Source: Pseudomonadales bacterium (GTDB taxonomy: Bacteria; Pseudomonadota; Gammaproteobacteria; Pseudomonadales; DC-out160). Taken from it: a stretch of DNA of 64,000 nucleotides. The stretch lies in contig JAHRWA010000054.1 in NCBI GenBank assembly GCA_019090455.1, positions 4,506-68,505 on the forward strand. The letters are read 5' to 3'. The notes under the pieces are model-generated. The model was not told the DNA's origin. It worked only from the letters and a program-made list of their open reading frames with translations, and did no database searches. Below, in pieces: positions 2,316 through 20,830 of this stretch. Position 1 is the stretch's first letter. Each line of letters opens with the position of its first letter. Both the position numbers and the translations under genes were made by a program.

Positions 2316-2625
2316 TGATCAACTCCCTGTCGGTGTAAAAACGACCATTTATTCCCTAGTTCTGGTCAATTGTTAGCTGCATTATTAATTTATTGCTCCG
2401 TATTAAATTAATAATAGACGGTGATTGAGAAGTTGGAACACTGCTAAGTGATTGCTTCTAACTCAAATATATTGATTGATTTGGCTGCTTTCGTTGTCTG
2501 CTATATCCCTTTTAATTGAGTTGACTTAAACAGTGGCTTGTAGGTATCTTCCCCGCCTAAATTAACTAATCTTGGCTGACCCTAAAGGATTAGATACAGC
2601 AATCAAAGTAGTGGTGGTGCTATCA

Positions 2626-3786
2626 ATGAAAGAAAAACCAATCAGTAAACTCGGGCTCTTGTTAGGAATATTCATGTTTCTCTCGGTTATCGGGGTCGTT
2701 GTCTTTTTCGGAAATAGCTCGTCTCAAACGCAAGTGAGCAAGGCAGATCTATCTCATGTCCCTTTAAGTGTCTCTGTGTTACGTCTTGAAAGTCGGACGG
2801 TAAATGTTTATGAAGACATGCCTGGGAGAACCGCTGCATACCAGGTTGCTGAAATTCGGCCGCAAGTGACGGGTATATTGAAAGAGCGTCTATTTATAGA
2901 AGGCAGTTTTGTAGAAGAGGGCGCCGCTCTGTATCAAATAGATCCTGCACCCTATCAAGCGTCTTACAATAGTGCATTAGCAGCATTAGAAAAAACTAAA
3001 GCGAATTTAAAATCTCTTAGTGTAACCAGTCAACGATTTCAAGAATTAGTAAAATCCAAAGCCGTAAGCGAGCAAGAATATGATGATAATATTTCGCGTG
3101 TCGCTTTAGCGAAAGCGGATGTTGGTGTCGCCGAGGCTGTGGTAGCGCAAGCAAAAATCAATTTGGATTTCACTAATGTCTACGCTCCGATATCAGGAAT
3201 TATTGGGAAATCGAGGGTGACAAAAGGTGCTTTGATTACGGCTAATCAAGAGGCTCTATTAGCGATTATTACACAGCTAGATCCTATGTACGTTGATATG
3301 ACTTTAGCCAGCTCGACGTTGAGTTATTTGCGTCAAAACTTTGGGGATCTACAAAAAATACCCGTACACCTTTTTAGCGATACGGCTGAGAAAGAACCCA
3401 TTCATTCGGGTATCTTGAAATTTTACGAAGTCACTGTTGATCCTGCCACTAGCACAGTACAGCTTCGGGGAGAGTTTCCTAATGAAAGTGCGACATTGCT
3501 ACCTGGGTTATACGTGCGAGCAGCATTGGAACTTGAGTTGCAAGATGCCTTGCTTATCCCACAAAAGGCATGCCAACGTCTGCCTAATGGTAGCTTAACG
3601 GCTTGGGTGTTGGGTAAGGATGATACTGTCAATTCTGTTCCGTTTGTTTCTACCCGTGCCTACGGAGATCAGTGGTTGGTCGAATCTGGATTAAAACCGG
3701 GAGATGTGATCGTCACCGATAGTATGATTCGCATGAAGCCTGATTTGGTTATCATCCCTGAATACCAAAACAATACGGGGGATTAA
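2626..3786 (+). CDS. RND efflux periplasmic adaptor (membrane fusion protein, AcrA/MexA family)
   Basis: Motifs RPQVTGIL, LYQIDPAPYQA, coiled-coil hairpin and YAPISGIIGKS are typical HlyD/AcrA family. Probable start is ATG 2626 (MKEKPISKL, TM anchor); the ORF-track start 2572 is TTG. The stop lies 2 nt before the pump gene. Confidence 0.85.
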   Translation: MKEKPISKLGLLLGIFMFLSVIGVVVFFGNSSSQTQVSKADLSHVPLSVSVLRLESRTVNVYEDMPGRTAAYQVAEIRPQVTGILKERLFIEGSFVEEGAALYQIDPAPYQASYNSALAALEKTKANLKSLSVTSQRFQELVKSKAVSEQEYDDNISRVALAKADVGVAEAVVAQAKINLDFTNVYAPISGIIGKSRVTKGALITANQEALLAIITQLDPMYVDMTLASSTLSYLRQNFGDLQKIPVHLFSDTAEKEPIHSGILKFYEVTVDPATSTVQLRGEFPNESATLLPGLYVRAALELELQDALLIPQKACQRLPNGSLTAWVLGKDDTVNSVPFVSTRAYGDQWLVESGLKPGDVIVTDSMIRMKPDLVIIPEYQNNTGD

Positions 3787-3788
3787 TC

Positions 3789-6700
3789 ATGGCTCATTTT
3801 TTTATTGATCGCCCTGTTTTTGCGTGGGTAATTGCGATTGTAATTATGTTAGCGGGAGTGCTGTCGCTGGTAAATTTACCGGTAGAACAGTATCCCAATA
3901 TTGCACCTCCTTCGGTATCTATTAATACACAGTATCCAGGAGCATCGGCTAAAACAATTGAAAACAGTGTGACTCAAGTGATAGAGCAAAGTTTAACGGG
4001 CATTGATCATATGCGTTACTTTGTGTCGGATAGTAATTCTGCGGGGCTGTCGACGATTGTCGTCACTTTTGATCCCGATGCGGATATCGATATCGCGCAA
4101 GTTCAGGTGCAGAATCAGTTGCAGTCTGTGATGCAGCTTCTGCCACAGGAGGTTCAGCAGCAGGGTGTCACGGTGACGAAATCCAATAATAGTTTTTTGT
4201 TGGTTGCGGGTTTTTATTCTGAAAATGAAAGTATTACTCAGGTGGATTTGGGTGACTTGTTGACCTCTCATTTGAGTGATGCTGTTGCTAGGATTAATGG
4301 GGTAGGGAATGTGACTGTTTTTGGAGAGCCTCATGCGATGCGCATTTGGCTGAATCCGAATAAGTTACAGAGCTACAACCTTACCGTGATGGATGTGCAG
4401 CGTGCGGTACAGGCTCAGAATACGGATGTCTCCGCGGGTCAACTGGGTGGATTGCCATCGGTAAGGGGGCAGCAAGTTAATGCTTCGATTACGGCGCAGT
4501 CAAGACTCCAGACTGTGGGGGATTTTGAGAGAATTATCTTAAGGGTTAGATCGGACGGTTCCCAATTGCGATTACGTGATGTGGCGCGACTTGAGTTAGG
4601 GGCTCGTACCTATACAGGGACAGCCCGATATAAAGGTAAGCCAGCCGCTGGGCTTGCGGTGACATTGGCGTCGGGCGCAAATGCGCTAAATACGGCAGCA
4701 GCCGTTAAGAGTCGCATTGCTGATCTTGCTAAGGATTTACCTCCTGATGTTAAGGTTGTTTATCCATACGATACGACGCCTTTTGTTAAGTTATCTATAA
4801 AAGAAGTGGCTATCACGCTTGCTGAAGCAATTGGTCTCGTTTTTGTGGTGATGTTTCTTTTCTTACAAAATTTTAGGGCGACGTTAATACCGACTATTGC
4901 GGTGCCGGTGGTTTTATTGGGTACCTTTGCAATGTTGTCTATTTTTGGTTTTTCGATCAATGTGCTGACGATGTTTGCCATGGTGCTGGCGATTGGTTTG
5001 CTGGTGGATGATGCCATTGTCGTGGTTGAAAACGTAGAGAGGATTATGGCGGAAGAGGGATTGTCGCCAAGAGAAGCCACTCGGAAATCAATGACGCAAA
5101 TAACAGGAGCGCTTATCGGTATCGCGCTTGTTCTGTCAGCGGTGTTTGTGCCTATGGCATTTTTCCCAGGTTCTTCCGGTGCCATTTATCGCCAGTTTTC
5201 GCTAACCATCGTATCAGCAATGGGGTTGTCTGTTTTGGTGGCAATAGTCTTGTCACCGTCGTTGTGTGCGACGTTATTGAAACCGGTCAAAAAGGGGCAT
5301 CAGGAGGTATCGACTGGTTTTTTTGGATGGTTCAATCGAAACTTTAATAAAAGTCGTGATACGTTTGTTTCCGGTTCTCAATTCATGAGTCGGCGTTCTG
5401 TGCGTTTTATGGGGATATACGTTGCTCTGATTGTCTGCCTTGGTTGGTTGTTCTTAAAGTTGCCGGGTTCCTTTTTACCGAATGAAGATCAGGGGATTAT
5501 GTTTTTGATGGTAAACACCCCTCCTGGTTCGACGTTGGAGCGAACCCTTGATAGCGTTAAGGAAATTGAATCGCAACTGTTGGAACAGGAAGGTGACGCG
5601 ATTGATCATCTCTTTATGGTTGCGGGATTTAGCTTTGCAGGTCGCGCGCAAAATGTAGGTCTTGGCTTTATTGGGCTGGAGGATTGGGAGAAAAGGACTG
5701 ATCCGAGCCAATCGGTGTTTGCATTAGCGGGGAGAATGATGGGTATATTTCAGTCATTGACGGATGCGCGGGCTTTTGCATTTTATCCGCCTCCCATTCG
5801 TGAGCTAGGTAATGCATCGGGCTTTGATATGCAATTAGTGGATAGAAATGGGCTTGGCCATGACGCATTAATGCAAGCGCGCAATCAATTTTTGGGCGAG
5901 GCGTTTCAGAATCCGAAACTTCAGCGGGTTCGTCCAAATGGTCTGAATGATGTACAACAGTTTGTGATTAATATTGATCATGAGAAGGCGAGCGCACTGG
6001 GAGTGTCTATTGCTGACATCAATCAAACGTTGCAGACGGCTTGGGGTGCGACTTATGTGAATGATTTTCTGGATAAGGGGCGCATTAAGAAAGTGTTTCT
6101 CCAGGCGGATGCACCTTATCGTATGATGCCCGATGATATTAGCGATTGGACTGTACGTAATGATAACGGTGATATGGTGAGCTTTGAGAGTTTTTCATCA
6201 ACTAGCTGGGTATCTGGATCTCCTAAACTAGAACGATTTAATGGGAACAGTTCGGTTAATTTGCAGGGTTCTACGGCGCCAGGCATTAGTACAGGTGAAG
6301 CGATGGAAGAAGTAGAGAAAATTGTAGGGTTATTACCTGGCGGCTTCACAGTTGAATGGGTAGGGCTTTCCTATGAAGAGCGTCAGAGTGGTGCTCAGAC
6401 TCCGCTGCTTTATACCTTATCCGCGTTGATGGTGTTCCTTTGTTTGGCAGCATTATATGAAAGCTGGTCCGTGCCGTTCTCTGTCATGTTAGTGGTGCCT
6501 ATTGGGTTGTTGGGTTCGGCACTTGCAGCGACATTTTCTGGGCTCAATAATGATGTGTATTTTCAAGTCGGATTGTTAACGACAATGGGGCTGGCTGCGA
6601 AGAACGCGATATTGATCGTGGAGTTCGCAAACAATCTTTATAAGCAGGGTTACAGTCTGTCAGATGCAACCTCGGTCGCGGCCAAACAACGATTTCGTCC

Positions 6701-6905
6701 AATCATTATGACTTCTATTGCATTTATATTGGGAGTCACCCCTTTGGCGTTAGCAAATGGAGCGGGTTCAGCAAGTCAAAATGCGATTGGTATTAGTGTG
6801 ATGGGAGGCATGTTGTCAGCGACTTTTCTTGGGATCTTTTTCGTACCACTTTTTTATGAGTTCTTTCAGCGAATTGGTGCTCGTTGGCGAGTAGAAGAAA
6901 AATAG
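3789..6905 (+). CDS. RND multidrug/solvent efflux permease (AcrB/MexB family)
   Basis: 1038 aa. MAHFFIDRPVFAWVIAIVIMLAG N-terminus, 12-TM architecture with two large periplasmic loops, and AIGLLVDDAIVVVEN proton-relay motif. Confidence 0.92.
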   Translation: MAHFFIDRPVFAWVIAIVIMLAGVLSLVNLPVEQYPNIAPPSVSINTQYPGASAKTIENSVTQVIEQSLTGIDHMRYFVSDSNSAGLSTIVVTFDPDADIDIAQVQVQNQLQSVMQLLPQEVQQQGVTVTKSNNSFLLVAGFYSENESITQVDLGDLLTSHLSDAVARINGVGNVTVFGEPHAMRIWLNPNKLQSYNLTVMDVQRAVQAQNTDVSAGQLGGLPSVRGQQVNASITAQSRLQTVGDFERIILRVRSDGSQLRLRDVARLELGARTYTGTARYKGKPAAGLAVTLASGANALNTAAAVKSRIADLAKDLPPDVKVVYPYDTTPFVKLSIKEVAITLAEAIGLVFVVMFLFLQNFRATLIPTIAVPVVLLGTFAMLSIFGFSINVLTMFAMVLAIGLLVDDAIVVVENVERIMAEEGLSPREATRKSMTQITGALIGIALVLSAVFVPMAFFPGSSGAIYRQFSLTIVSAMGLSVLVAIVLSPSLCATLLKPVKKGHQEVSTGFFGWFNRNFNKSRDTFVSGSQFMSRRSVRFMGIYVALIVCLGWLFLKLPGSFLPNEDQGIMFLMVNTPPGSTLERTLDSVKEIESQLLEQEGDAIDHLFMVAGFSFAGRAQNVGLGFIGLEDWEKRTDPSQSVFALAGRMMGIFQSLTDARAFAFYPPPIRELGNASGFDMQLVDRNGLGHDALMQARNQFLGEAFQNPKLQRVRPNGLNDVQQFVINIDHEKASALGVSIADINQTLQTAWGATYVNDFLDKGRIKKVFLQADAPYRMMPDDISDWTVRNDNGDMVSFESFSSTSWVSGSPKLERFNGNSSVNLQGSTAPGISTGEAMEEVEKIVGLLPGGFTVEWVGLSYEERQSGAQTPLLYTLSALMVFLCLAALYESWSVPFSVMLVVPIGLLGSALAATFSGLNNDVYFQVGLLTTMGLAAKNAILIVEFANNLYKQGYSLSDATSVAAKQRFRPIIMTSIAFILGVTPLALANGAGSASQNAIGISVMGGMLSATFLGIFFVPLFYEFFQRIGARWRVEEK

Positions 6906-7154: not shown

Positions 7155-8216
7155 ATGATCGATATTATTCTGAAAGATGAGTTACGGATACCGATGATTA
7201 TTTTACCGGCGCTAAGTCGGTATTATCGAGAGCTTGCTATCGATCCGGGTGAAGGCCTGGCTGTGATTGGAGATGCCTTTGATATCTCTGATATAGAAAA
7301 TCAGTATATTAACGTAGAACAGTTTCAGGCGTTGTTGAGAATTTTTAGAATTCACACTAAAGATGATGCTGTTGGTTTGAGTTTCGGCAAATCGTTCTCT
7401 TTTGAATTTCTCTATGACTTCGAGCTGTTGTTACAAACTGCTAGGGGCCTTGATGAGGTATTGCCATTTGCTGTTAGCCTAATAAATTCAATTAACCCGA
7501 CTTCTGTATTTTCTTGTATTAGAACTGAGTTTGGAGCTGTGGCATATCTTAGAGATAAGATTTCAGATTTGTTGGAGGATAGCGAATCTGCGATGGTCAC
7601 TGATGCCATTTTTTCGCTCTTTCAAGAGATTTGCCAGCGTGTAATAAATTCGGAATATCAAGTGAGAAGCTTAAGTGTTATGCATCGAATTTCGATTGGG
7701 AACATGAAACGGTATAAGGAATGTTTTGACGTTAACGTGAGTCCTGGAAGCCCGGTTAATGCATTGCGGTTCGAATATGTAAAAGGGCAGCACAATGCAG
7801 TTGATCGGTCAGATGAGTTACATGAGCAAGTCATTGAAGCAGTTATGCTGAAGTTAAAAAACTTACAAAATGCGAATGATTTCTCGGCGCAAGTGCTAGC
7901 GTTTATTGAAGGACATGAACAGCCGCTCGAACTTGAAATAAATGAGCTCGCATCCCGGTTAGAAGTGTCTAGACGGACTTTTCAGCGCCGATTGAAAGAT
8001 CTAGGCATAAGTTATCGCTCGCTGATAGATACGGTTATGTTCAGTAGAGCTGAGCAGTTACTTTTGGATGATGAGCTTTCCATCGATAGCGTCGCGACTT
8101 TACTCGGCTATAGTAGCCGCAGGGGTTTGAATAGATTGATTCACCGGCGTTCAGGCGCTTCTCCTAATCATTATCGCCAGACTCTTTTGCGTAAAAAAAA
8201 TGATGAAATATTGTAA
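7155..8216 (+). CDS. AraC/XylS-family transcriptional regulator with an N-terminal ligand-binding-type domain
   Basis: 353 aa. C-terminal double HTH (LASRLEVSRRTFQRRLKDLGISYRSL ... VATLLGYSSRRGLNRLIHRRSGASPNHYR). Sits directly upstream of, and co-directional with, the CuMMO operon. Confidence 0.8.
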   Translation: MIDIILKDELRIPMIILPALSRYYRELAIDPGEGLAVIGDAFDISDIENQYINVEQFQALLRIFRIHTKDDAVGLSFGKSFSFEFLYDFELLLQTARGLDEVLPFAVSLINSINPTSVFSCIRTEFGAVAYLRDKISDLLEDSESAMVTDAIFSLFQEICQRVINSEYQVRSLSVMHRISIGNMKRYKECFDVNVSPGSPVNALRFEYVKGQHNAVDRSDELHEQVIEAVMLKLKNLQNANDFSAQVLAFIEGHEQPLELEINELASRLEVSRRTFQRRLKDLGISYRSLIDTVMFSRAEQLLLDDELSIDSVATLLGYSSRRGLNRLIHRRSGASPNHYRQTLLRKKNDEIL

Positions 8217-8511
8217 TCTGTTAACTGTCGATAGCGACCTCTAAGAAAAACTGTGTCGCCAATATAACAATATTTGTTAATGCCCTCAGTGTTGTTAATC
8301 ATATATGGTTATAAAGTTTTTGTTACTTATGACGAGTTGCTTAATCTTAATTTCAACAGAATTAGCTATTTATACATGCTATGAGACGAAATGCGCCAAA
8401 TCACATATTAAGGGGATGTTTTGCGCCATTAAGAAATTAGAGCTAGTACCAAGGTGTAAAAGTTTTTGTTAGTGTTTATGTCAGGGTTCATAAGCTTTAT
8501 ATGTAGAAGAT

Positions 8512-9360
8512 ATGGACAACGAACTTATAATAAAGCTATTCGAGGTGATCTCAATGACGGAAATGAGCATGGAAAAAGCGGTAGTTGCTCCTTGGAAACT
8601 ATTCGCAACGGTACTGGGCGTGGTTGGTTGCATATTTTTATTATATCGATGGTACCAGCACGAGATGGCATTTAGTGTTGGGCTTGATTATTTTGAGCCT
8701 GAATTCCAAACATACTGGATGAATCTGATGTACACGCAATTGACCATACTGACGATTGGTGGTGCAGCATTTATGGGGTGGCTTTGGTTCACTCGCGAGA
8801 AAGAAGCTGTGCTGGAAATATCCAGGGAAGAAGAGGTATCTCGTTATCTTAAGTTCTTGGGATTGCTGTCAGTGTTTTCCTTATTAGTATGGCTCTCTAC
8901 TAGCTTGTATGCCGAAGCGGATGCGGCTTGGCATCAGGTGACTGTAAGAGATACCGATTTTACACCAACTCATATCCCTCTATTCTATTTTGCTTTGCCT
9001 TGCATGATTATAGCTGGTTGTAGTTTGTTTGTTTGGGGGCACACTCGTTTACCTGATTTGTATGGACGAATATCGCTACCATTTGCGATGACAGTTGGAG
9101 GCCCTATATTGATTATGCCTAATGTTGGTTTCAATGAGTGGGGTCACACTTTTTTCTATGCCGAAGAATTATTCGCAGCTCCGATTCACTGGGGGTTTGT
9201 ATTGTTAGGTTGGTCAATATTCTTTGTTGGCGGCTTTCTGATGCAGATCATTAAACGAATCCATGATTTAGTAGATGGTAATACAGAGTTGCAGCATATG
9301 AATAATGTTGAACCTTTAAATGCACCTAGTTATGGATACGATGTTAAAAAAGCATCGTAA
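8512..9360 (+). CDS. pmoC: Copper membrane monooxygenase subunit C (PmoC/AmoC family)
   Basis: Polytopic membrane ORF. EPEFQTYWMNLMY, DAAWHQVTVRDTDFTPTH (D-x3-H-x12-H) and NEWGHTFFYAEELFAAPIHWGF (N-x3-H-x13-H) are PmoC/AmoC hallmark motifs. Start is ambiguous: ATG 8512, or ATG 8554 preceded by GAGGTG. Confidence 0.9.
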   Translation: MDNELIIKLFEVISMTEMSMEKAVVAPWKLFATVLGVVGCIFLLYRWYQHEMAFSVGLDYFEPEFQTYWMNLMYTQLTILTIGGAAFMGWLWFTREKEAVLEISREEEVSRYLKFLGLLSVFSLLVWLSTSLYAEADAAWHQVTVRDTDFTPTHIPLFYFALPCMIIAGCSLFVWGHTRLPDLYGRISLPFAMTVGGPILIMPNVGFNEWGHTFFYAEELFAAPIHWGFVLLGWSIFFVGGFLMQIIKRIHDLVDGNTELQHMNNVEPLNAPSYGYDVKKAS

Positions 9361-9396
9361 GTAATTAGCAGCAGAAATAAGTTTGATTTTGATTTG

Positions 9397-9441
9397 CGGG
9401 GCTAGGGCCAACTTATAGAACTAAGGGTGGCTCTAGCCCCG
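9397..9441 (+). other. Intercistronic stem-loop between the subunit C and subunit A genes
   Basis: CGGGGCTAGGGCCA (9397-9410) pairs with TGGCTCTAGCCCCG (9428-9441): 14 bp including one G-U, with a 17-nt loop. It is followed only by TTT, so it is not a canonical intrinsic terminator. Confidence 0.45.
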
Positions 9442-9510
9442 TTTGATGTCTATCGATACAAAAAAGACAGATAATAAAAAATTAGCATTAATATTATTAG
9501 GGGAAGTTTT

Positions 9511-10242
9511 ATGGAAAGAATTAGTACAGTGAATGAGAGAAAACTTTTTTTGACTCTCGACATATTGTTAATACCCGTACTGGTTATTCTTTTTATGGGT
9601 GTTTTTAGTTTTCACTTTGCCCTGACCGTAGGAGATTGGGATTATTGGATTGATTGGAGGGATAGACGTTGGTGGCCACTAGTGACCCCTTTATCGTTAA
9701 TCGTACTACCAGGAGTATTTGGCTATCTACTTTGGGATAAACTTCGATGGCCTTTAGGCGGGACGATTACCATATTGGGATTAAGTTCGGCAGCCTGGGT
9801 AAGTCGAGTCTGGAATTTTGAGATATTTGCAGGATTTCCTTTGAATATGGTGACTCCATCTACCTACGTCGGTCTTGGCCTAATGTTAGATGCAACACTT
9901 GTTATAACCAAAAGCTTCATGGTGACGGGGTTGTTTGGTGGGTTTCTATTTGGCTTTTTAATATATCCTTTGAACTGGCCCATTATAGCGCCCTACCATT
10001 TACCTATTGAGATGGATGGTACCTTGATGACTGTCGCAGATGTCATGGGGTACGAGTACATTAGAACGGCTATACCTGAATATGTTCGCATAATTGAATC
10101 CTCCACGTTACGTACTTTTGGTGAGGCTGTTGTTCCTTTGACTGCGGTATTTGCCGGTTTTCTTACGGTATTGACGTATTATCTGTGGGTTTGGGTAGGT
10201 TATTTGACCTCAAAACCGACTTGGATTAAGAAAATAGTATAA
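9511..10242 (+). CDS. pmoA: Copper membrane monooxygenase subunit A (PmoA/AmoA family)
   Basis: 243 aa. GDWDYWIDWRDRRWWPLVTP and NWPIIAPYHLPIEMDGTLMTVADVMGYEYIRTAIPEYVRIIESSTLRTFG align over the full length with remembered PmoA/AmoA sequences. A GGGGAAG RBS lies upstream. Confidence 0.93.
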   Translation: MERISTVNERKLFLTLDILLIPVLVILFMGVFSFHFALTVGDWDYWIDWRDRRWWPLVTPLSLIVLPGVFGYLLWDKLRWPLGGTITILGLSSAAWVSRVWNFEIFAGFPLNMVTPSTYVGLGLMLDATLVITKSFMVTGLFGGFLFGFLIYPLNWPIIAPYHLPIEMDGTLMTVADVMGYEYIRTAIPEYVRIIESSTLRTFGEAVVPLTAVFAGFLTVLTYYLWVWVGYLTSKPTWIKKIV

Positions 10243-10292
10243 AGAAGTTCTAGTAGATTTAGTTCAGCATAACAATAAGATTTATAAATGAT

Positions 10293-11552
10293 TTGAAATT
10301 GGGGCAAAAATTGATGAATGCAAAGAGAAAGAGGCCTGTATCTGCGGTCTTCCTCCTGTTGTTAACGTTATTTACAGTAAATGAAGTAGCGGCTCACGGC
10401 GAACGCGCCCAGCAAGCTGGTATACGTATGAGGACGATACATTTTTTTGATATTGAGATATATCCACGCACTTTGAAAGTTAATGAAGAAATGACGGTTA
10501 AAGGGAAGTTTATTCCTTCTGAAAATTGGCCAGATCATTTAGCTTCTACTGAGGGGACTGCCTTCCTGAATATAGGAGTGCCAGGGCCAAAGTTTATTCG
10601 GCTTTCTTCAAGTGTAAATGGTCAACCGATGATTCGTTCAACTTCTTTTCAGGAAGGGGAATTATACGAATTTGAGATGACGTTAAAAGCTAGAAATGAA
10701 GGGGAATACCACGTACACCCTGTTATTAGTGTGCAGGACGCGGGACCTATAATCGGTCCAGGATATTGGGTCACAGTAGAAACTGGTACGGCCCCATTTG
10801 AGAACCATATAACTACGCTTTTCGGTGAAGAGTTGGATCTTGAAACACATGGTCTGTCGAATACCATATTTTGGTCAAGTCTATGGTTTGTTATAGGGTT
10901 TGCTTGGTTTGGGTATTGGTTGTTTAGATCTAAACTACCTATTATTATGCCACGCTATAAGTTGATCGCGGATGCTAAAGATGCCGATGATATTATAACT
11001 CGGCAAGATCAAATTGCTGGTGGTGTGTGCTTAGCGTTGTGCTTGTCGATCATCGGGTTTGGTTATTTGTGGGCTGAAGATAAATACCCTGTTACAACTC
11101 CATTACAAACAGGAAAGGTAAAAACTCCACTTATAGAGTGGGATAAGCATGCTGTAGCTGCTGAGCTAGTGAAAGCGGAATATCGTATTCCTGGGCGGTC
11201 TTTTAAGGTGGAAGTGAATGTGACTAATACGTTGGAGACACCTGTAAGGCTTGCGGAGTTCACTGCCGGAGGGATAAGGTTTGGCAATCCAAATGTGAGA
11301 GAGTTAAAACCTCAGGATCGACATGATTTGGTGGCAGAAGCGGGCTTGATTGTGGTTAATGAGCAGATAGAGCCTGGTGAAACTAAGTCAGTTGTATTTG
11401 AAGCGAATGACGCTCTTTGGGAAATTCAACGTCTAACGTCATTGATTTACGATCCTGATAGCCGGTTCGGTGGAATGATACAATTTGAGGCAAGAAATGG
11501 TCAACGCTATCCAGTTGAAATAGGTGGGGCGATGCTGCCCTTGTTTAATTGA
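10293..11552 (+). CDS. pmoB: Copper membrane monooxygenase subunit B (PmoB/AmoB family)
   Basis: Signal peptide ...TVNEVAA then HGERAQQAGIRMRTIHFFD; GEYHVHPVISV. Two central TM helices (FWSSLWFVIGFAWFGYWLF, GGVCLALCLSIIGFGYLW) lie between two soluble halves, as in PmoB. Start is TTG 10293 or ATG 10314. Confidence 0.9.
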   Translation: MKLGQKLMNAKRKRPVSAVFLLLLTLFTVNEVAAHGERAQQAGIRMRTIHFFDIEIYPRTLKVNEEMTVKGKFIPSENWPDHLASTEGTAFLNIGVPGPKFIRLSSSVNGQPMIRSTSFQEGELYEFEMTLKARNEGEYHVHPVISVQDAGPIIGPGYWVTVETGTAPFENHITTLFGEELDLETHGLSNTIFWSSLWFVIGFAWFGYWLFRSKLPIIMPRYKLIADAKDADDIITRQDQIAGGVCLALCLSIIGFGYLWAEDKYPVTTPLQTGKVKTPLIEWDKHAVAAELVKAEYRIPGRSFKVEVNVTNTLETPVRLAEFTAGGIRFGNPNVRELKPQDRHDLVAEAGLIVVNEQIEPGETKSVVFEANDALWEIQRLTSLIYDPDSRFGGMIQFEARNGQRYPVEIGGAMLPLFN

Positions 11553-12124
11553 TGTATCGTCTTGTTCTCTTAATCATGAGTTTGATGCCCTCCGTGCTGT
11601 ATGCCCACGGGGGGGTTAGCATGAAGGATGACATGTGCGTGATAAAGTTAGGTAGCTACAAAGCGCACTTCTCGGCGTATATGCCTAAGTTACGGGGGAC
11701 TCAAGAATTTTGTGAGTCCTTTCCTGAAATAGGTGAAGCGATAATTGCTGTTGATTTTGTGAGCAGGGAGTTGCGCGACCAACGTATACAATTTGAGGTG
11801 GTAAAGGACTTTACAGGAAAGGGCGCGAAGGCAACGGGCAAAGATTTATTTGGCGAACACTTAGCTGAATATACGAAAGCGATAATACATCAGGATGTGG
11901 GTTCGTTTCGTAAATCTGGAACACTTAACTTTCCGGTTAATTTAGAAGAAAAAGGCTGGTACATAGGTGTGATGCGAATTATCTCAGATGATAATTCCGT
12001 GATCGCAGAGAGTGTCTTTCCGTTTGAAGTAGAGCCCTCTACAATTTGGCGTTATTTTGTGCTGCTATCGTTTGTAGTCGTGTTAGTAGGTGGCTTATTC
12101 GTGGTTGTTGGTTATAAAAAATGA
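11552..12124 (+). CDS. Secreted, C-terminally membrane-anchored protein of unknown function, in the PmoD/AmoD position of the CuMMO operon
   Basis: ATG 11552 overlaps the subunit B stop (TGATG). Signal peptide MYRLVLLIMSLMPSVLYA, then a mature sequence starting HGGVSMKDDMCVIK, a ~140-aa soluble domain, the TM helix WRYFVLLSFVVVLVGGLFVVVGY, and KK. Confidence 0.7.
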   Translation: MYRLVLLIMSLMPSVLYAHGGVSMKDDMCVIKLGSYKAHFSAYMPKLRGTQEFCESFPEIGEAIIAVDFVSRELRDQRIQFEVVKDFTGKGAKATGKDLFGEHLAEYTKAIIHQDVGSFRKSGTLNFPVNLEEKGWYIGVMRIISDDNSVIAESVFPFEVEPSTIWRYFVLLSFVVVLVGGLFVVVGYKK

Positions 12125-12759
12125 ATGAAGAGCGGCTAGCATGAAGTCGCTCAGACTTATTAAAGCAATAAAGTAACTGTGTTCCTTCTAAATACAATGA
12201 TTCTTTATGAAAATGCTGAACTCAAGCACTTGAAGAGTCATTTAATTCCCTTGCAGTATATAACGCCCCTTCTCCCTAATTTGTAGTGCTATTGCTACTC
12301 GAGATTTTCCTCTTCGAATTTAGAGTTTTAATATGATGTTTGTCTTATTTTATATCGGCAACACATTTTCCGATTTACTATATATTGTGCAAATGAACTT
12401 ACCTCACCTCGACCAATACCTCGGTAATTCTGTAGTGCATTTGCATAATGGTCAGTGATTTAACAATGAGAACGAAAAGCGTTTTTCAATTTTTCCGTGA
12501 TGTAAATTAGCTAAGTTTGGTAAATTTAATCTAAAGGGCATTGATTAAATTTTGGATCTTTATTGATTTTGAGTATGTAATACTGGCCAAGAATTCCTTT
12601 TAGTTCTGATTCACCTTAAATTAGAAATCAATGCAGATTATAACTTGAACTAATTCAAAGGGGTTTGTCGACAAGAACGAAAAAACGGTGCTTATCTTCA
12701 CTTCCCATGATTAAGCGTTTACTGCTATTGTTGCGCCTAGTCTATTTCAAGGAGATGTT

Positions 12760-13626
12760 ATGGATTCGTTACAGTATTTCGCCCCGACAACGCTACAAGA
12801 AGCTGTGCAGTTATTAGAGACTAACAGTGGATGCCGAATAATGGCCGGTGGCACTGACTTAATTGTACAAATGCACATCGGTACGGCATCGCCTCCTGCG
12901 ATTGTCGATATAAAGAAGATTCCCGAATTAAATAAACTTCAACTAAGTGATTCTGATTTACTGTTGGGGCCTGCTGTATCAGGCGCCTCTATTACAGAAC
13001 AAGCAGATATCGCAGCAATATATCCAGGATTAGTGGAAGCAATAGACCTGATTGGTTCGACACAAGTGCAAGGTCGATGTTCTGTAGGCGGCAATTTATG
13101 TAACGCATCTCCCGCAGCAGATACAGTCCCCTCTTTAATAGTTAACAATGCAGTTTGTGAAATTCACGGCGCTTCTGGAGTTCGAGAAGTAGCGGCGGAG
13201 TCGTTTAATCTTGGGCCGGGTAAAAACTGTTTGTCAGAAGGTGAAATTCTATCGTTGATTCGATTGCCCAAGCCAGTGCCAGGTAGTGCAGATGCATATT
13301 TGCGTTTTATCCCTCGAACTGAAATGGATATTGCAGTTGTTGGAGCGGCAGTTTCTGTCACCATCGGAGGTGATGGGGTTTGCAGCGCTGCTAGAGTGGC
13401 AATTGGAGCTGTGGCACCCACTGCATTGTTAGTACCTGAAGCCGCGAAGGCGTTAGTTGGTACAGATTTAAATGATCAAGCGTTGGAAAATGCTGGTGCA
13501 GCTGCGAGTCAAGCAGCGAGTCCCATTTCGGATAAAAGAGGTACTGCGGAATACCGCATTAAGGTAGTTGGGGTATTAACGAGAAGAGCGGCTGCAATTG
13601 CTAAGCAACGAGCCTTACAAAACTAA
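12760..13626 (+). CDS. Molybdenum hydroxylase FAD-binding (medium, CoxM/XdhB-like) subunit
   Basis: 288 aa. FAPTTLQEAVQLL...IMAGGTDLIVQM and SPISDKRGTAEYR are typical of the FAD-binding PCMH / CO-dehydrogenase flavoprotein domains. Confidence 0.85.
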   Translation: MDSLQYFAPTTLQEAVQLLETNSGCRIMAGGTDLIVQMHIGTASPPAIVDIKKIPELNKLQLSDSDLLLGPAVSGASITEQADIAAIYPGLVEAIDLIGSTQVQGRCSVGGNLCNASPAADTVPSLIVNNAVCEIHGASGVREVAAESFNLGPGKNCLSEGEILSLIRLPKPVPGSADAYLRFIPRTEMDIAVVGAAVSVTIGGDGVCSAARVAIGAVAPTALLVPEAAKALVGTDLNDQALENAGAAASQAASPISDKRGTAEYRIKVVGVLTRRAAAIAKQRALQN

Positions 13627-13659
13627 TTCAACGGTAGATTTTAAAGAGGGATTTTATTG

Positions 13660-14136
13660 ATGGCGACTCATGTGAAAACCACTATAAACAATGAAGCGGT
13701 GGAATTTCTTTGCGAACCCCACGAATCTTTGTCCTCCGTATTGAGAGAGAGGCTTCATCTTACGGGGACAAAAGAAGGTTGTACTACGGGTGATTGCGGA
13801 GCTTGCTCGGTGATGTTAGATGATCGATTAGTCTGTTCTTGTTTAGTGCTTGGAGTAGAAACTGAAGGAATGAGCATTGATACGGTGGAAGGTGTTGCCA
13901 AGGCAGATAAATTACATCCAATACAGGAAAAGCTGTTAGAGCATGCGGCATTGCAATGTGGAATTTGTACGCCAGGGATCGTCGTTTCAGCAAAAGCGTT
14001 GTTAGAGAAAAAGGCTGACCCTACTGAAGAGGAAGTCCGTTTCTGGCTTGCCGGAAACCTATGTCGTTGTACTGGGTACGACAAGATAATACGCGCGGTA
14101 TTGGATGCCGCCTCAGTATTAAGAGAGGAGGCTTGA
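13660..14136 (+). CDS. Molybdenum hydroxylase [2Fe-2S] small (CoxS-like) subunit
   Basis: Cys clusters GCTTGDCGACSV and QCGICTPG...NLCRCTGY. ATG 13660 lies one codon inside the TTG-started ORF. Confidence 0.9.
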   Translation: MATHVKTTINNEAVEFLCEPHESLSSVLRERLHLTGTKEGCTTGDCGACSVMLDDRLVCSCLVLGVETEGMSIDTVEGVAKADKLHPIQEKLLEHAALQCGICTPGIVVSAKALLEKKADPTEEEVRFWLAGNLCRCTGYDKIIRAVLDAASVLREEA

Positions 14137-14138
14137 TA

Positions 14139-16418
14139 ATGAGTGGACAAACTTCTAGTGAATATAAGTATATCGGTACACGCTCTATACGTCCTGATGG
14201 TGCAGATAAAGTAACAGGAAGAGCCAATTATGGGGCTGATTTCTTTTTGCCAGGAATGGTGCATGGGAAGATACTTCGAAGCCCTTTAGCCCATGCAAAA
14301 ATACTCTCCATAGATGTATCTGCAGCGCTTGCGATGCCAGGTGTTCTGTCGATTGCAACCTCAGAAGATTTGCCTGATATGAATGCGGGTACTGAATCTG
14401 CCGGAGAAGGGGAAGTCGATTTTTATGATTTCTCATGTAATGTTCTTGCAAGAGAAAAAGTATTATATCACGGCCAAGCAGTTGCAGCAGTTGCCGCTAC
14501 TTCAGAGGCAATAGCTCGATCGGCCCTTGACAAGATCGTCGTTGATTATGAAGAGCTCACTCCTGTCTTAGATCTTTTGGGCGCACAAAAATCCGATTCA
14601 CCCCTGCTTCATAAGAATCAAACCACTGAAGGCCCTAAAGGTAAGGGTAAGACACCTTCAAATATTGCAAAACAGATGATGTTAGCAAGAGGTAATGTTG
14701 ATGAAGGTTTTTCTGAAGCTGATGTAGTGGTAGAGAAGACCTTCATTTCACCAATAGTTCACCAGGGGTATATTGAGCCCCATGCTTGTGTGGTGAGAAC
14801 CAACGAATCAAATCAAATAGATGTTTGGTGTAGCTCTCAGGGTCACTTCATGGTCCGCTCTTTTATGGCGAGATTGTTGGCCATGGATGTGTCTAATATA
14901 AAAGTGACACCTCTAGAAATTGGTGGTGGATTTGGTGGTAAGACGGTTATTTATTTGGAGCCAGTTGCCGCCATCTTGTCCCGAAAAGCGGGTCGTCCTG
15001 TTAAAATGGTGATGGATCGTGAAGAAGTGTTTAGAGCAACGGGACCAGGCTCCTCAAGTATTGTGAAAGTGAAGGTGGGGGCCAAGAGTGACGGCAGGAT
15101 TGTCGCTATGGAAGCTGATATAACACTTAATGCCGGTGCGTTTAAAGGTTCTCCAATGATGCCGTCAATGATGTGTGTCTTTACTCCGTATACCTGCCCA
15201 AATATGAAAGTAACTGGAAAGGATGTTGTAACAAATACCCCCAAAGTGGCAGCATATCGAGCACCAGGAGCTCCCCAGTCTCATTTAGCGGCAGAGTGCG
15301 TTGTCAACGAAATAGCTAAACGTCTGAATATTGACCCTATTGATTTGAGATTGCTTAATGCGGTTGATGAAGGTAGTCCGACTATTTATGGGCCGAAATT
15401 TAAAGCAATTGGTTTAAAAGCCGCTCTTACCGAAGCAAGGAGTCACCCGCACTATGCGTCTGCATTATCTGATAATCAGGGGCGTGGGGTAGCATGCGGC
15501 TTCTGGTTTAATGTTGGTTTGCAGTCCAGTGCCACAATTAATATAACAGAGAGTGGAAAAGCGGTTGTAATCACAGGTAATCCCGACATTGGTGGGTCTC
15601 GAGCTTCCATGGCTCTAATGGCTGCTGAATCCTTGGGTATTCCATTGGATCAAATAAAACCGATAATTGGTGATACTGAATCGGTTGGGTATAACGATGT
15701 CACTGGTGGTAGTCGAACGACATTTGCATCAGGTGGTGCAGTGATCAAGGCCGCAGAAAACCTTATTCAAGATTTGAAGAGGCGGGCAGCTAAACTGATG
15801 GATATAGATGTTGAGCTAGTGCAGTGGATTGATGGGCAAGCAGTTGCTCCCGCTGATCTAGATAAAAAGCCTCTTTCTTTGGCACGCCTTGCAAGAAAAG
15901 CAGGTGCTACCGGTGGACCACTAACGGCTACAGCAACGCAGACTGCGAGAGGAGCAGGTCCGAGTTTTGCGGTTAATATTATTGATGTAGAAGTGGATAA
16001 AGAGACCGGTAGTGTAGATGTAAAACGAGTTACTGTTTTACAAGACGCAGGTAAAGCAATACATCCTAGCTATGTGGAAGGTCAAATGCAGGGAGGAGCT
16101 GTTCAAGGAATTGGGTGGGCACTCAACGAAGAGTTTGTCTACAACGAAAAAGGTGTTATGGAAAACCCTGGTTTTTTAGATTATCGAATCCCCTTGGCTT
16201 CTGACTTACCTATGATTGACACTGTAATTATTGAAGTTCCAAATCCAGGTCATCCTTATGGGGTAAGAGGAGTCGGTGAAGCACCCATTTGTCCACCAAT
16301 GGCTGCCGTGACATCAGCAGTTAATGATGCTATTGGTTGTGGAGCTGATTTTCAATTGACTGAGTTGCCATTGAGCCCGGTGAAGGTGCTAGACGCTGCT
16401 GAAAAGTTGATGGGCTAA
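14139..16418 (+). CDS. Molybdopterin-binding large subunit of a xanthine dehydrogenase/aldehyde oxidoreductase-family enzyme
   Basis: 759 aa from ATG 14139 (RBS AGAGGAGG; 2 nt after the small-subunit stop). Family-typical GRANYGADF, HQGYIEPHA, GGGFGGK and AAYRAPGAPQ. The loop is neither VAYRCSFR nor AYRGAGR, so it is not a CODH. Confidence 0.88.
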   Translation: MSGQTSSEYKYIGTRSIRPDGADKVTGRANYGADFFLPGMVHGKILRSPLAHAKILSIDVSAALAMPGVLSIATSEDLPDMNAGTESAGEGEVDFYDFSCNVLAREKVLYHGQAVAAVAATSEAIARSALDKIVVDYEELTPVLDLLGAQKSDSPLLHKNQTTEGPKGKGKTPSNIAKQMMLARGNVDEGFSEADVVVEKTFISPIVHQGYIEPHACVVRTNESNQIDVWCSSQGHFMVRSFMARLLAMDVSNIKVTPLEIGGGFGGKTVIYLEPVAAILSRKAGRPVKMVMDREEVFRATGPGSSSIVKVKVGAKSDGRIVAMEADITLNAGAFKGSPMMPSMMCVFTPYTCPNMKVTGKDVVTNTPKVAAYRAPGAPQSHLAAECVVNEIAKRLNIDPIDLRLLNAVDEGSPTIYGPKFKAIGLKAALTEARSHPHYASALSDNQGRGVACGFWFNVGLQSSATINITESGKAVVITGNPDIGGSRASMALMAAESLGIPLDQIKPIIGDTESVGYNDVTGGSRTTFASGGAVIKAAENLIQDLKRRAAKLMDIDVELVQWIDGQAVAPADLDKKPLSLARLARKAGATGGPLTATATQTARGAGPSFAVNIIDVEVDKETGSVDVKRVTVLQDAGKAIHPSYVEGQMQGGAVQGIGWALNEEFVYNEKGVMENPGFLDYRIPLASDLPMIDTVIIEVPNPGHPYGVRGVGEAPICPPMAAVTSAVNDAIGCGADFQLTELPLSPVKVLDAAEKLMG

Positions 16419-19274: not shown

Positions 19275-19336
19275 CTCATTGAGAGATTAAACCAAACTAA
19301 ATAGAGCTATTTAGTTTGGTTTAATCTCTCAATGAG
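19275..19336. terminator. 29-bp perfect inverted repeat (4-nt spacer) between convergent genes; probable bidirectional terminator
   Basis: CTCATTGAGAGATTAAACCAAACTAAATA (19275-19303) is the exact reverse complement of 19308-19336. The right arm is the last 9 codons plus TA of the stop of the minus-strand ORF 19307-20830. Confidence 0.6.
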
Positions 19337-20830
19337 TTCTTCGAAGTCACTATCGATTTTGAGGGAAGATGAAGAGTTTGTTAAAATTAGGTTTGAAGAA
19401 TCAATCACCAGTTTTAGTAATTTATTTTTAACTTTACCTTCTATTGTAAGAGGTGCTAGAGCGCCTTTGTAATCCGAAATGAGTTGTTCTGAAACCTGTC
19501 TAACCTCTTTTATATGCTTTTTGTAATTCCCATTTAAGGAGTCTAAAGTACTTTTTGTTGTTTTAGTTAACAGGCGAAACCTATCGCTTTCGTTTTTTTG
19601 TGCAATTTTTGCATCGATCATACCGATGACTGAATCGAGGGTTAAGGATAGAGTTTGCAAATTATCTCGTAAGCGATCTAGAGTTTCAGAATCTTCTATA
19701 GCCGCTGCGCTGACGCATAACTTGGCTTTTTCACCATGTAATAAATAGAGTTCATCGTGAATAGATAGTCTCCCATCTGCTTCTTGACTCCATATGCTAC
19801 TTTCGCCATTTAAACCAAGTTCATCCTTACTGCAAAAAAAGAGCGGATTCTTGCCGTTGAATATTAGCAGCGCTGCATCCGTATTCATCGATTTTGTCAG
19901 TGAAAATAATTTATTCGATACTTCTTCTTGTGTATTGCATTTGTTGCACTCGGTGATAAATAGAAGAATTGCTCCTAAATCAGCACAGTTCTTCATAAAG
20001 CCAAAAACCATTTCCGTAGTTTGATTGAGCTCAGTTTCAAGGCCATCTATTTTATTTTGTTTTTCATCCAAAATGCCCGCATCTTCATTTGAACTTTGTT
20101 TAACAGTTGATTCCACCTTTGAAGAACTACCTTTCTCCTTCAGCGTATTATTCTCTTGAATAAGTAATTCTACTCTTTCCTCCAATGCTTTTAACTGTTC
20201 ATTGGAAGAACTTTGCGTATCTTGGAGAGACTTTAAAGTCCTCAACTGTAATTGGGCAGCACTATTGTCGCTACTATCTAGCTCGTTGAGTTCTTCGGTA
20301 TCTGTGATTAATTGAGTCGTTAAATTCGATTGTTGGCGCATCTCATCATTTAACCCACTGAAGAGTGAGCTATAGCTATTGTTTGTCTGTGTCGTAGCTG
20401 GAGTTTCTATAAGTGGCGAAGAGGCCGGAGATGATGAGTTCAGTGCGTCGGTTTTGAGTTTCTCCAACTGATCATAGGTTTCAAAAAATAATTGTTTGAA
20501 TTTTTCTAGGTTTTTTATTCTTTGATTGAAATTGTCAATAATGTTCGAATCTGGTTTTGCGAGAGTCTGAGTACCGGTGTCTTGTGCGCTCATTAGACTT
20601 AGGATGTCTACTAGACCAACGCCCAACATGGCCCAATCCGTGTAAGGATTATCGTCTTCCTTTAAGGCTGCAATTTCCAGTTTTAGATATGAGGACCGTA
20701 TAAACGAGGCTTTTTGTAATAATGGACTTTCCGAAAGTGATGCGTAATCCGACTTGGATTGAGGGCATCTATCTTCGCCAAGTATTAGTTCTTTTTCAAA
20801 AAAAGCTCTTATAATCTTGTCGCTAGACAT
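19307..20830 (-). CDS. Hypothetical 507-aa protein with a central Ser/Gln/Asn-rich coiled-coil region
   Basis: Long ORF with no signal peptide or TM helix. Heptad-like segment LQLRTLKSLQDTQSSSNEQLKALEERVELLIQENNTLKEK. I recognise no family motif. Confidence 0.55.
   Translation of the reverse strand: MSSDKIIRAFFEKELILGEDRCPQSKSDYASLSESPLLQKASFIRSSYLKLEIAALKEDDNPYTDWAMLGVGLVDILSLMSAQDTGTQTLAKPDSNIIDNFNQRIKNLEKFKQLFFETYDQLEKLKTDALNSSSPASSPLIETPATTQTNNSYSSLFSGLNDEMRQQSNLTTQLITDTEELNELDSSDNSAAQLQLRTLKSLQDTQSSSNEQLKALEERVELLIQENNTLKEKGSSSKVESTVKQSSNEDAGILDEKQNKIDGLETELNQTTEMVFGFMKNCADLGAILLFITECNKCNTQEEVSNKLFSLTKSMNTDAALLIFNGKNPLFFCSKDELGLNGESSIWSQEADGRLSIHDELYLLHGEKAKLCVSAAAIEDSETLDRLRDNLQTLSLTLDSVIGMIDAKIAQKNESDRFRLLTKTTKSTLDSLNGNYKKHIKEVRQVSEQLISDYKGALAPLTIEGKVKNKLLKLVIDSSNLILTNSSSSLKIDSDFEELIERLNQTK

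Follow-up and report, generated by a model that had tools for sequence, protein, structure and literature searches.

The fourth gene of a divergent copper membrane monooxygenase operon from a Pseudomonadales bacterium almost certainly encodes a PmoD/AmoD-family protein with a predicted N-terminal histidine

The stretch of DNA analyzed here (the window) comprises 64,000 nucleotides (nt) of contig JAHRWA010000054.1 from a Pseudomonadales metagenome-assembled genome (MAG; assembly GCA_019090455.1). It carries a pmoCAB-type operon for a copper membrane monooxygenase (CuMMO), and the gene under study is the open reading frame (ORF) that directly follows subunit B in this operon. The four genes are listed below; the NCBIfam equivalog cutoffs referred to are those for bacterial ammonia monooxygenase (AMO) and particulate methane monooxygenase (pMMO).

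8512-9360, + strand: CuMMO subunit C gene (PF04896, E 9.6e-75; below the NCBIfam equivalog cutoffs)
9511-10242, + strand: CuMMO subunit A gene (PF02461, E 1.8e-78; below the NCBIfam equivalog cutoffs)
10293-11552, + strand: CuMMO subunit B gene, PmoB/AmoB-like (PF04744, E 1.6e-123; NF041640, 484 bits, above cutoff)
11552..12124, + strand: gene assigned to the pmoD/amoD family, 190 codons plus TGA (basis: TGATG overlap and PmoD family membership)

Subunits A and C fall below the equivalog cutoffs and therefore the monooxygenase is, judged by sequence, a divergent member of the CuMMO family. The TGA of the subunit B gene (11550-11552) and the ATG of the following gene (11552-11554) have one A in common (TGATG at 11550-11554), an overlap which allows coupled translation of the pmoD-type gene; its own TGA stop lies at 12122-12124. 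A TTG at 11549, one codon 5' of ATG 11552, is an alternative start that would add one Met. Thus the description of this ORF as a fourth, co-oriented gene of the CuMMO operon with a coupled start, which had been made from the letters in a preliminary description, holds. A promoter and terminator scan of 8100-12900 yielded sites no more numerous than in shuffled sequence and none at the operon end.

In public records the identical protein (P0001, from a Pseudomonadales MAG) is entered as a 'hypothetical protein' of 167 aa which begins at the internal Met24 (nt 11621), and the same internal start is called for orthologues (P0002, P0003, P0014, P0015). The long frame from ATG 11552 is nevertheless best taken as the real reading frame and the Met24 call as wrong, because full-length-called homologues at 50-63% identity keep both the signal peptide and the A/HGGVS junction behind it (the slash marks the predicted cleavage), and because in tblastn residues 1-190 all aligned to a 77%-identical locus. 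If the NCBI call was right, the product of 167 aa would have neither signal peptide nor N-terminal His. That start was picked by gene callers in several MAGs (P0001, P0003, P0014, P0015), and a Shine-Dalgarno-like GGGGGGG is present 6-12 nt 5' of the Met24 ATG. The G-run, however, consists of the His-Gly-Gly codons CAC GGG GGG, and HGG is conserved at the protein level across the family. Moreover, no stop interrupts the frame between the end of subunit B and Met24, homologues called full length retain the signal peptide, and a product starting at Met24 would leave a cupredoxin domain with two conserved Cys in the cytoplasm, unlike the rest of the family, so that this shorter product is very improbable. 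For the window gene and several of its orthologues the start in public records is thus set too far downstream, which cuts off both signal peptide and conserved His; such genes should be named pmoD-family and given the upstream start.

The features of the gene and its predicted product are as follows.

11552..11605, + strand: Sec-type signal peptide, residues 1-18, MYRLVLLIMSLMPSVLYA (hydropathy; conserved x-A/HGG junction; predicted cleavage after Ala18)
11606..11608, + strand: His19 codon (CAC), predicted mature residue 1, the 'H1' of Fisher et al. 2018
11606..12046, + strand: predicted periplasmic cupredoxin-like soluble domain, residues 19-165, about 147 aa (AlphaFold, Foldseek)
11636..11638, + strand: Cys29 codon, C1, equivalent to PmoD Cys41 (invariant in the homologue alignment; aligned to C41)
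11660..11662, + strand: Lys37 codon, where PmoD has Met49 (sequence and profile alignments)
11666..11668, + strand: His39 codon, H2, equivalent to PmoD His51 (invariant in the homologue alignment; aligned to H51)
11711..11713, + strand: Cys54 codon, C2, equivalent to PmoD Cys65, inside a conserved E-F-C-E-x-x-P (invariant; aligned to C65)
12047..12121, + strand: C-terminal transmembrane helix, about residues 166-187, with a predicted cytoplasmic Gly-Tyr-Lys-Lys tail (hydropathy, AlphaFold, PmoD alignment)

Hydropathy peaks at residues 1-19, where the signal-peptide-like segment contains one Arg, and again at about residues 163-190, where AlphaFold places a helix (165-189) that aligns with the PmoD transmembrane helix. 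The order of signal peptide, soluble domain, single C-terminal transmembrane helix and KK tail was hereby confirmed, as were the two Cys near the predicted N-terminal His (C29 and C54, both conserved, like H39). His19 is followed by GGVSMKDDMC29. The most conserved residues among the homologues are the potential metal ligands H19, D27, C29, H39, E52, C54 and E55; a W-R-Y segment just ahead of the transmembrane helix is conserved as well. A Tat signal and a lipoprotein signal were considered and ruled out, as there is no twin-Arg and no lipobox Cys.

PmoD/AmoD proteins are membrane-tethered periplasmic cupredoxin-like copper proteins encoded beside CuMMO genes, and the window protein belongs almost certainly to this family by its sequence. 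A profile was built from 16 homologues, 14 of them distinct, taken from a collection of 5.8 billion proteins. Searched against all PDB sequences with hmmsearch, it gave one significant match, PmoD 6cpd_A (E 2.2e-15, positions 27-160). An hhalign comparison with 14 Methylocystis-type PmoDs resulted in a probability of 99.7% (E 2.1e-26) over 166 columns that span signal peptide, domain and transmembrane helix, and in BLASTP the full-length PmoD of Methylocystis sp. Rockwell (P0167) aligned collinearly with 23% identity over 184 aa (E 3e-12). AlphaFold models were obtained for the full-length protein (predicted local distance difference test, pLDDT, 80.6) and for the mature domain (pLDDT 88.6, predicted template modelling score, pTM, 0.82). 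For both, the best PDB match in Foldseek was 6cpd_A with a target-normalized template modelling score (TMt) of 0.81-0.82 and an E of about 1e-9; for the mature domain the values were TMq 0.71 (query-normalized), TMt 0.82 and E 7.6e-10. The next match was the copper-resistance protein CrdA (TMt 0.63), followed by generic immunoglobulin-like folds. Of the family hallmarks, the following are present: PmoD similarity, the cupredoxin-like fold, a signal peptide, two conserved Cys, the C-terminal transmembrane helix and a genome that encodes a CuMMO. The family itself is large, with 420 relatives at E <= 1e-3 in a phmmer search over 1.84 billion cluster representatives.

The ORF matched no family in Pfam-A or NCBIfam even at E <= 1, which is the reason why it looks like an orphan. 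As relatives of the Methylocystis PmoD likewise have no precomputed Pfam domain, both libraries appear to hold no PmoD model, and the null scans are no argument against membership. The empty scans, together with public records that read 'hypothetical protein', are also what could be brought forward for a copper protein that is new, confined to this lineage and not related to PmoD. This explanation is refuted, and left with next to no probability, by the profile, pairwise and fold matches to PmoD, by an orthologue that is already catalogued as PmoD (see below) and by the apparent lack of a PmoD model in the family libraries. Relationships to CopC, YcnI or PCuAC were rejected in view of missing sequence matches and weak fold scores; for CopC (PF04234), YcnI and lytic polysaccharide monooxygenases (LPMOs) there was no Pfam match at E <= 1, and the Foldseek TM values for CopC and LPMOs were 0.33-0.56.

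The preliminary description had recognized the position and architecture of PmoD/AmoD, and both were found, the gene lying directly after subunit B and coding for signal peptide, domain and transmembrane helix. It had seen no convincing PmoD-like similarity by eye; profiles, BLASTP and the fold comparison all give PmoD. Its proposal of a lineage-specific CuMMO partner was to fall if profile searches showed an ordinary PmoD/AmoD member, and this is what hmmsearch and hhalign showed, the Foldseek comparison of the AlphaFold models leading to the same known family. The proposed copper-related periplasmic role remains the best guess. We therefore regard the gene as a further member of a known family. 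For the explanation as a whole, with the inferred copper role included, our confidence is good and leans mostly on the identity claim.

Relatives were collected from 185,579 species-representative genomes, in which 163 were confirmed; the loci described here are the best 80 of these 163. In all 80 the gene is located directly 3' of, and co-oriented with, subunit B, in the order C-A-B-D, so the census of CuMMO adjacency that had been proposed gave a uniform result. The hosts are Nevskiales (Solimonas, Panacagrimonas, Nevskia, Sinimarinibacterium, Polycyclovorans), Porticoccaceae and other Pseudomonadales, together with Polaromonas, Rhodoferax, Hydrogenophaga, Macondimonas, Thiotrichaceae and a few alphaproteobacterial MAGs; canonical methanotrophs or nitrifiers were not found among the best 80. 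Downstream of pmoD the loci carry the following.

Multicopper oxidase gene, immediately downstream: 40 loci
copC-copD, immediately downstream: 18 loci
copCD, a few kb further on: 5 loci
Neither, within the flank: 15 loci
Contig ends: 2 loci

Metagenome contigs showed the same two arrangements (multicopper oxidase or copCD). The window falls in the group with neither, and a tblastn search of its 64 kb for copC, copD, a multicopper oxidase and a second pmoD found none. Examples of these downstream neighbors, which were noted in the range L009-L087, are L010:7589-9256 and L011:7657-9937; copC-copD was seen mostly in Nevskiales. Past the multicopper oxidase, several loci have two conserved ORFs with no Pfam domain (e.g. 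L001:10467-12216). Two tandem subunit C genes are situated upstream of A and B in L001, L004, L020, L026 and L030, and in L065:5645-6863 the subunit B match is in two pieces, which may be a frameshift or a pseudogene. Beside non-methane CuMMOs, pmoD is also known in Methylacidiphilum (pmoCAB3-pmoD) and Binatota.

The strict linkage to subunit B also bears on a structural explanation, in which the protein would be an assembly subunit that docks on the CuMMO trimer and stabilizes the trimer or membrane arrays, with copper being incidental. The position after subunit B in 80/80 loci fits this, the start/stop overlap suits matched expression, the transmembrane helix is kept with the conserved W-R-Y ahead of it, and stabilization is among the roles proposed by Fisher et al. 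A 2026 review of native-membrane pMMO/AMO structures, on the other hand, reports no strong evidence of PmoD association (PMC13058606), conservation is strongest at the potential metal ligands and not in the transmembrane helix, and the frequent copCD or multicopper oxidase neighbors point to copper chemistry. We consider a mainly structural role improbable.

For the mature N-terminus, 151 family representatives with an intact N-terminus, of all motif classes, were examined alongside the 80 genome relatives. In 80/80 genome relatives a His precedes C1 by exactly 10 residues, and 139/151 family representatives (92%) have it at the same position (C1-10), the other 12 having Gly. Immediately before this His (-1, n=139) the counts are A 114, G 15, S 5, P 4 and T 1, hence A/G/S in 134/139; at -3 (n=139) they are A 74, V 27, L 18, I 6, S 6, T 4, G 3 and C 1. 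Position -3 is thus small or aliphatic in all 139, which is the (-3,-1) pattern of signal peptidase I, and cleavage is predicted between Ala18 and His19, making His19 residue 1 of the mature protein. The expression constructs of Fisher et al. 2018 were designed to begin at the same His, as seen from their primers, and no signal-peptide fragments were seen by proteomics in that study (PMC6189053). In their 'H1' column, N. europaea AmoD, AmoE and MCA2130 have His and the operonic PmoDs of alpha-methanotrophs Glu or Ala (PMC6189053). The N-terminal His in front of the soluble domain, as the preliminary description had it, is therefore present (80/80, 139/151); it is not a speciality of this lineage, being family-wide and the 'H1' of a published table. 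Similarly, the comparison that had been drawn with the N-terminus of the neighboring subunit B stands, as that protein reads ...NEVAA/HGER. Within PmoD, a minority clade replaces the post-signal His-Gly-Gly by Gly-Gly-Gly or Ala-Gly-Gly and keeps C1, H2 and C2; its members include P0030, P0048, P0049, P0055, P0079, P0094, P0099, P0148, P0153 and others.

The full-length Rockwell PmoD reads RA/EGGAGPEAMSMGNMC, and the deposited 6CPD chain begins SMGNMC. Recombinant PmoD homologues that begin at His1 bear a vector-derived Ser-Met (PMC6189053). Owing to these extra residues, a free His1 amine was therefore never present in vitro. A Ser-Met-His N-terminus is an NH2-X-X-His motif, of the amino-terminal Cu(II)- and Ni(II)-binding (ATCUN) type, which itself binds Cu(II). 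The type-2 copper signals that were reported may thus partly be an artefact of Ser-Met-His.

The motif of the window protein is H19-x9-C29-x9-H39-x14-C54 with K37 and A38, which places it in the Cx9HxnC class, where both C1+8 and C1+9 lack Met. C29, H39 and C54 are invariant in the homologue alignment, the 14 distinct homologues have K, R or Q at the position equivalent to Met49, and all 80 genome relatives belong to the Cx9H class, with Met at C1+8 or C1+9 in none of them. Compared with the CuA subclass (Cx7MxHxnC), the C1 Cys and the His at C1+10 are present (C29, H39) and the Met at C1+8 is absent (Lys37). The CuA of Methylocystis PmoD, a Cx7MxHxnC protein, requires two monomers that each contribute Cys41, Met49 and His51, and the M49A exchange abolishes it; Cys65 is no CuA ligand, and a Cys41-Cys65 disulfide is seen in the 6CPD crystal (PMC6189053). 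MettrDRAFT_0370, the Cx9HxnC member that was tested, bound 1.40 Cu per protein and gave type-2 electron paramagnetic resonance (EPR) signals and no CuA (PMC6189053). According to Fisher et al., in-operon PmoDs are mostly Cx7MxH or Cx8MH (PMC6189053). The subfamily studied here is the exception among in-operon PmoDs, since it is always in-operon and never has the Met. By analogy, the window protein should bind copper but not form the dimeric CuA center of Methylocystis PmoD, because Lys replaces the Met ligand.

The same residues weigh on the idea that the protein is an electron-transfer partner, forming a dimer around a mixed-valent CuA-type Cu2S2 center that would deliver reducing equivalents to the monooxygenase. 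Cys29 and His39 do align with the CuA ligands Cys41 and His51, and the operon position is that of the CuA-forming PmoD and AmoE. The third ligand, Met49, is however Lys37 here, K, R or Q in close homologues and missing throughout the Cx9H relatives; the effect of M49A and the lack of CuA in the tested Cx9HxnC protein point the same way, and the CuA of Methylocystis PmoD itself has not been tied to function in vivo. Electron transfer is in our view an unlikely task for this protein, about as unlikely as the structural one.

Copper handling is our preferred explanation, to which we give roughly an even chance. The protein would be exported by Sec and cleaved after Ala18, with the C-terminal helix serving as anchor, the domain in the periplasm and the Lys-Lys tail inside. 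Mononuclear copper would be bound by some of the following residues: His19, perhaps together with its free amine, His39, Cys29/Cys54 if they are not disulfide-bonded, and the nearby carboxylates D26, D27, E52 and E55. The copper would then be passed to, or kept at, the monooxygenase, and the protein would not act as an electron carrier. The elements of this scheme that come from the present analysis are the family, the fold, the motif class, the position after subunit B and the pairing with copper genes in relatives. Indirect support comes from published work on other systems: in M. trichosporium OB3b, deletion of the operonic pmoD impairs growth solely under conditions with copper and active use of pMMO, and co-expression of the Methylacidiphilum IT6 PmoD with a heterologous pMMO enabled acetone oxidation. 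PMC8764830 was the one new relevant PmoD paper found for the years since 2019.

Several points weigh against copper handling through such a site. Mature residues 1-8 have a pLDDT < 50 in both AlphaFold models, and nothing puts His19 near His39. C29 and C54 may be a structural disulfide and not ligands, as in 6CPD. The copper and EPR data for the Cx9HxnC class were obtained from a construct with Ser-Met before His1, so the native site may differ, and all copper-binding data come from other family members, the window protein being known from sequence and models. The copper-handling context is that of the relatives, as the window has no such genes in its 64 kb.

A more specific and tentative proposal is that in most PmoD/AmoD proteins, the window protein among them, removal of the signal peptide frees His1, whose amine and imidazole, together with the invariant His 20 residues on and nearby carboxylates, form a mononuclear copper site resembling a histidine brace, and that this is the ancestral functional center of the family; we think it rather unlikely to be correct. 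No open-access paper linking PmoD to a histidine brace was found. Such a site would have been overlooked since the sole crystallized PmoD is from the alpha-methanotroph clade with Glu in place of His1, since the deposited chain begins past this segment, and since the recombinants carry Ser-Met, which creates an artificial X-X-His where they start at His1. If the proposal is true, the non-methane CuMMO operons (no CuA Met, 80/80) would show CuA to be a derived speciality and not the core function of the family.

No other accessory protein follows the CuMMOs as closely as PmoD/AmoD do. The closest 80 relatives come from Gamma- and Betaproteobacteria that are neither methanotrophs nor nitrifiers and from unclassified MAGs, and their PmoD is always of the class for which no CuA is expected, with the predicted N-terminal His kept. 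That an in-operon PmoD lacks the CuA class in 80/80 loci argues for a PmoD task for the monooxygenase that is independent of CuA. What remains of interest is family-wide: the conserved mature N-terminal His, and non-methane CuMMO operons whose PmoD is without the CuA ligand set.

Around the operon, an AraC-family regulator (7155-8216, +) lies directly 5' of the CuMMO genes, and further upstream of it is a resistance-nodulation-division (RND) efflux pair consisting of a membrane-fusion protein and an AcrB-type pump (2572-6905, +). About 640 nt past the operon, three genes (12760-16418, +) encode the flavin adenine dinucleotide (FAD), 2Fe-2S and molybdenum cofactor (MoCo) subunits of a CoxM/CoxS/CoxL-type molybdenum hydroxylase. 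Its large-subunit ORF, listed from 14061, shares 76 nt with the 2Fe-2S gene, the true start probably being further in. An aldehyde formed in steps that follow the monooxygenase may be the substrate of this CoxMSL-type hydroxylase. Further neighbors in the window are genes for acyl-CoA dehydrogenases, short-chain dehydrogenases, a Zn alcohol dehydrogenase, a luciferase-like monooxygenase, thiolases and an acyl-CoA ligase. The richness of the region in enzymes of alcohol, aldehyde and acyl-CoA oxidation would fit the further oxidation of a hydrocarbon-derived product and tentatively suggests a hydrocarbon substrate of the CuMMO. A 507-aa ORF on the opposite strand (19307-20830, -) is rich in Ser/Glu/Leu/Lys and coiled-coil-like, with no Pfam family at E <= 1e-3.

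Known systems resemble the window protein to different degrees. With CopC, the CuB site of PmoB and the LPMOs it shares a predicted mature N-terminal His on a periplasmic or secreted beta-sandwich protein, a possible analogy in function and no more; CopC (5icu) was matched with E 1.4e-3 and TMt 0.56 by the full-length model and fell outside the top 50 for the mature-domain model, and LPMOs reached a TM of about 0.4. The PmoD of Methylocystis sp. Rockwell (Met49242_1452, 6CPD) has the same family, fold, architecture and place directly after pmoB, as well as C1, H2, C2 and the E-[FY]-C-[ED]-x-x-P motif. It differs in being only 23% identical, in Met49 as opposed to Lys, in its methanotroph host, in the Glu instead of His after the signal peptide and in four extra residues inserted ahead of C1. 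MettrDRAFT_0370 of Methylosinus trichosporium OB3b is like the window protein in its Cx9HxnC motif, in the Lys at the Met position ('VKV') and in the His at H1, whereas it is encoded outside a CuMMO operon (neighborhood 'none') and was studied with Ser-Met before His1. N. europaea AmoD (orf5, NE0941) and AmoE (orf4, NE0942) are of the same family with His at H1, and their genes come fourth and fifth in the amoCAB operon, the window gene being the fourth of its own; unlike it, they have the motifs Cx8MHxnC and Cx7MxHxnC, in which Met is present, and serve ammonia monooxygenase.

The closest catalogued protein stems from Solimonas aquatica DSM 25927. The supplement of Fisher et al. 2018 tabulates 860 PmoD sequences with their motifs and neighborhoods, among them Ga0070002_104146 (198 aa, contig coordinates 165511-166107, group 'other'), which is listed as in-operon with neighborhood 'cabdcd', motif Cx9HxnC and H1 = H; a Cycloclasticus 'cabd' entry adjoins it in the table (PMC6189053). 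By its coordinates and length, Ga0070002_104146 is our locus L038:6935-7531. This orthologue differs from the window gene in that copC-copD come next ('cabdcd'), the window having no copper genes downstream. It is like the window gene in lying directly after subunit B, in its A/HGGVS junction and Cx9HxnC motif, and in sharing 37% identity (E 1e-43) with its product.

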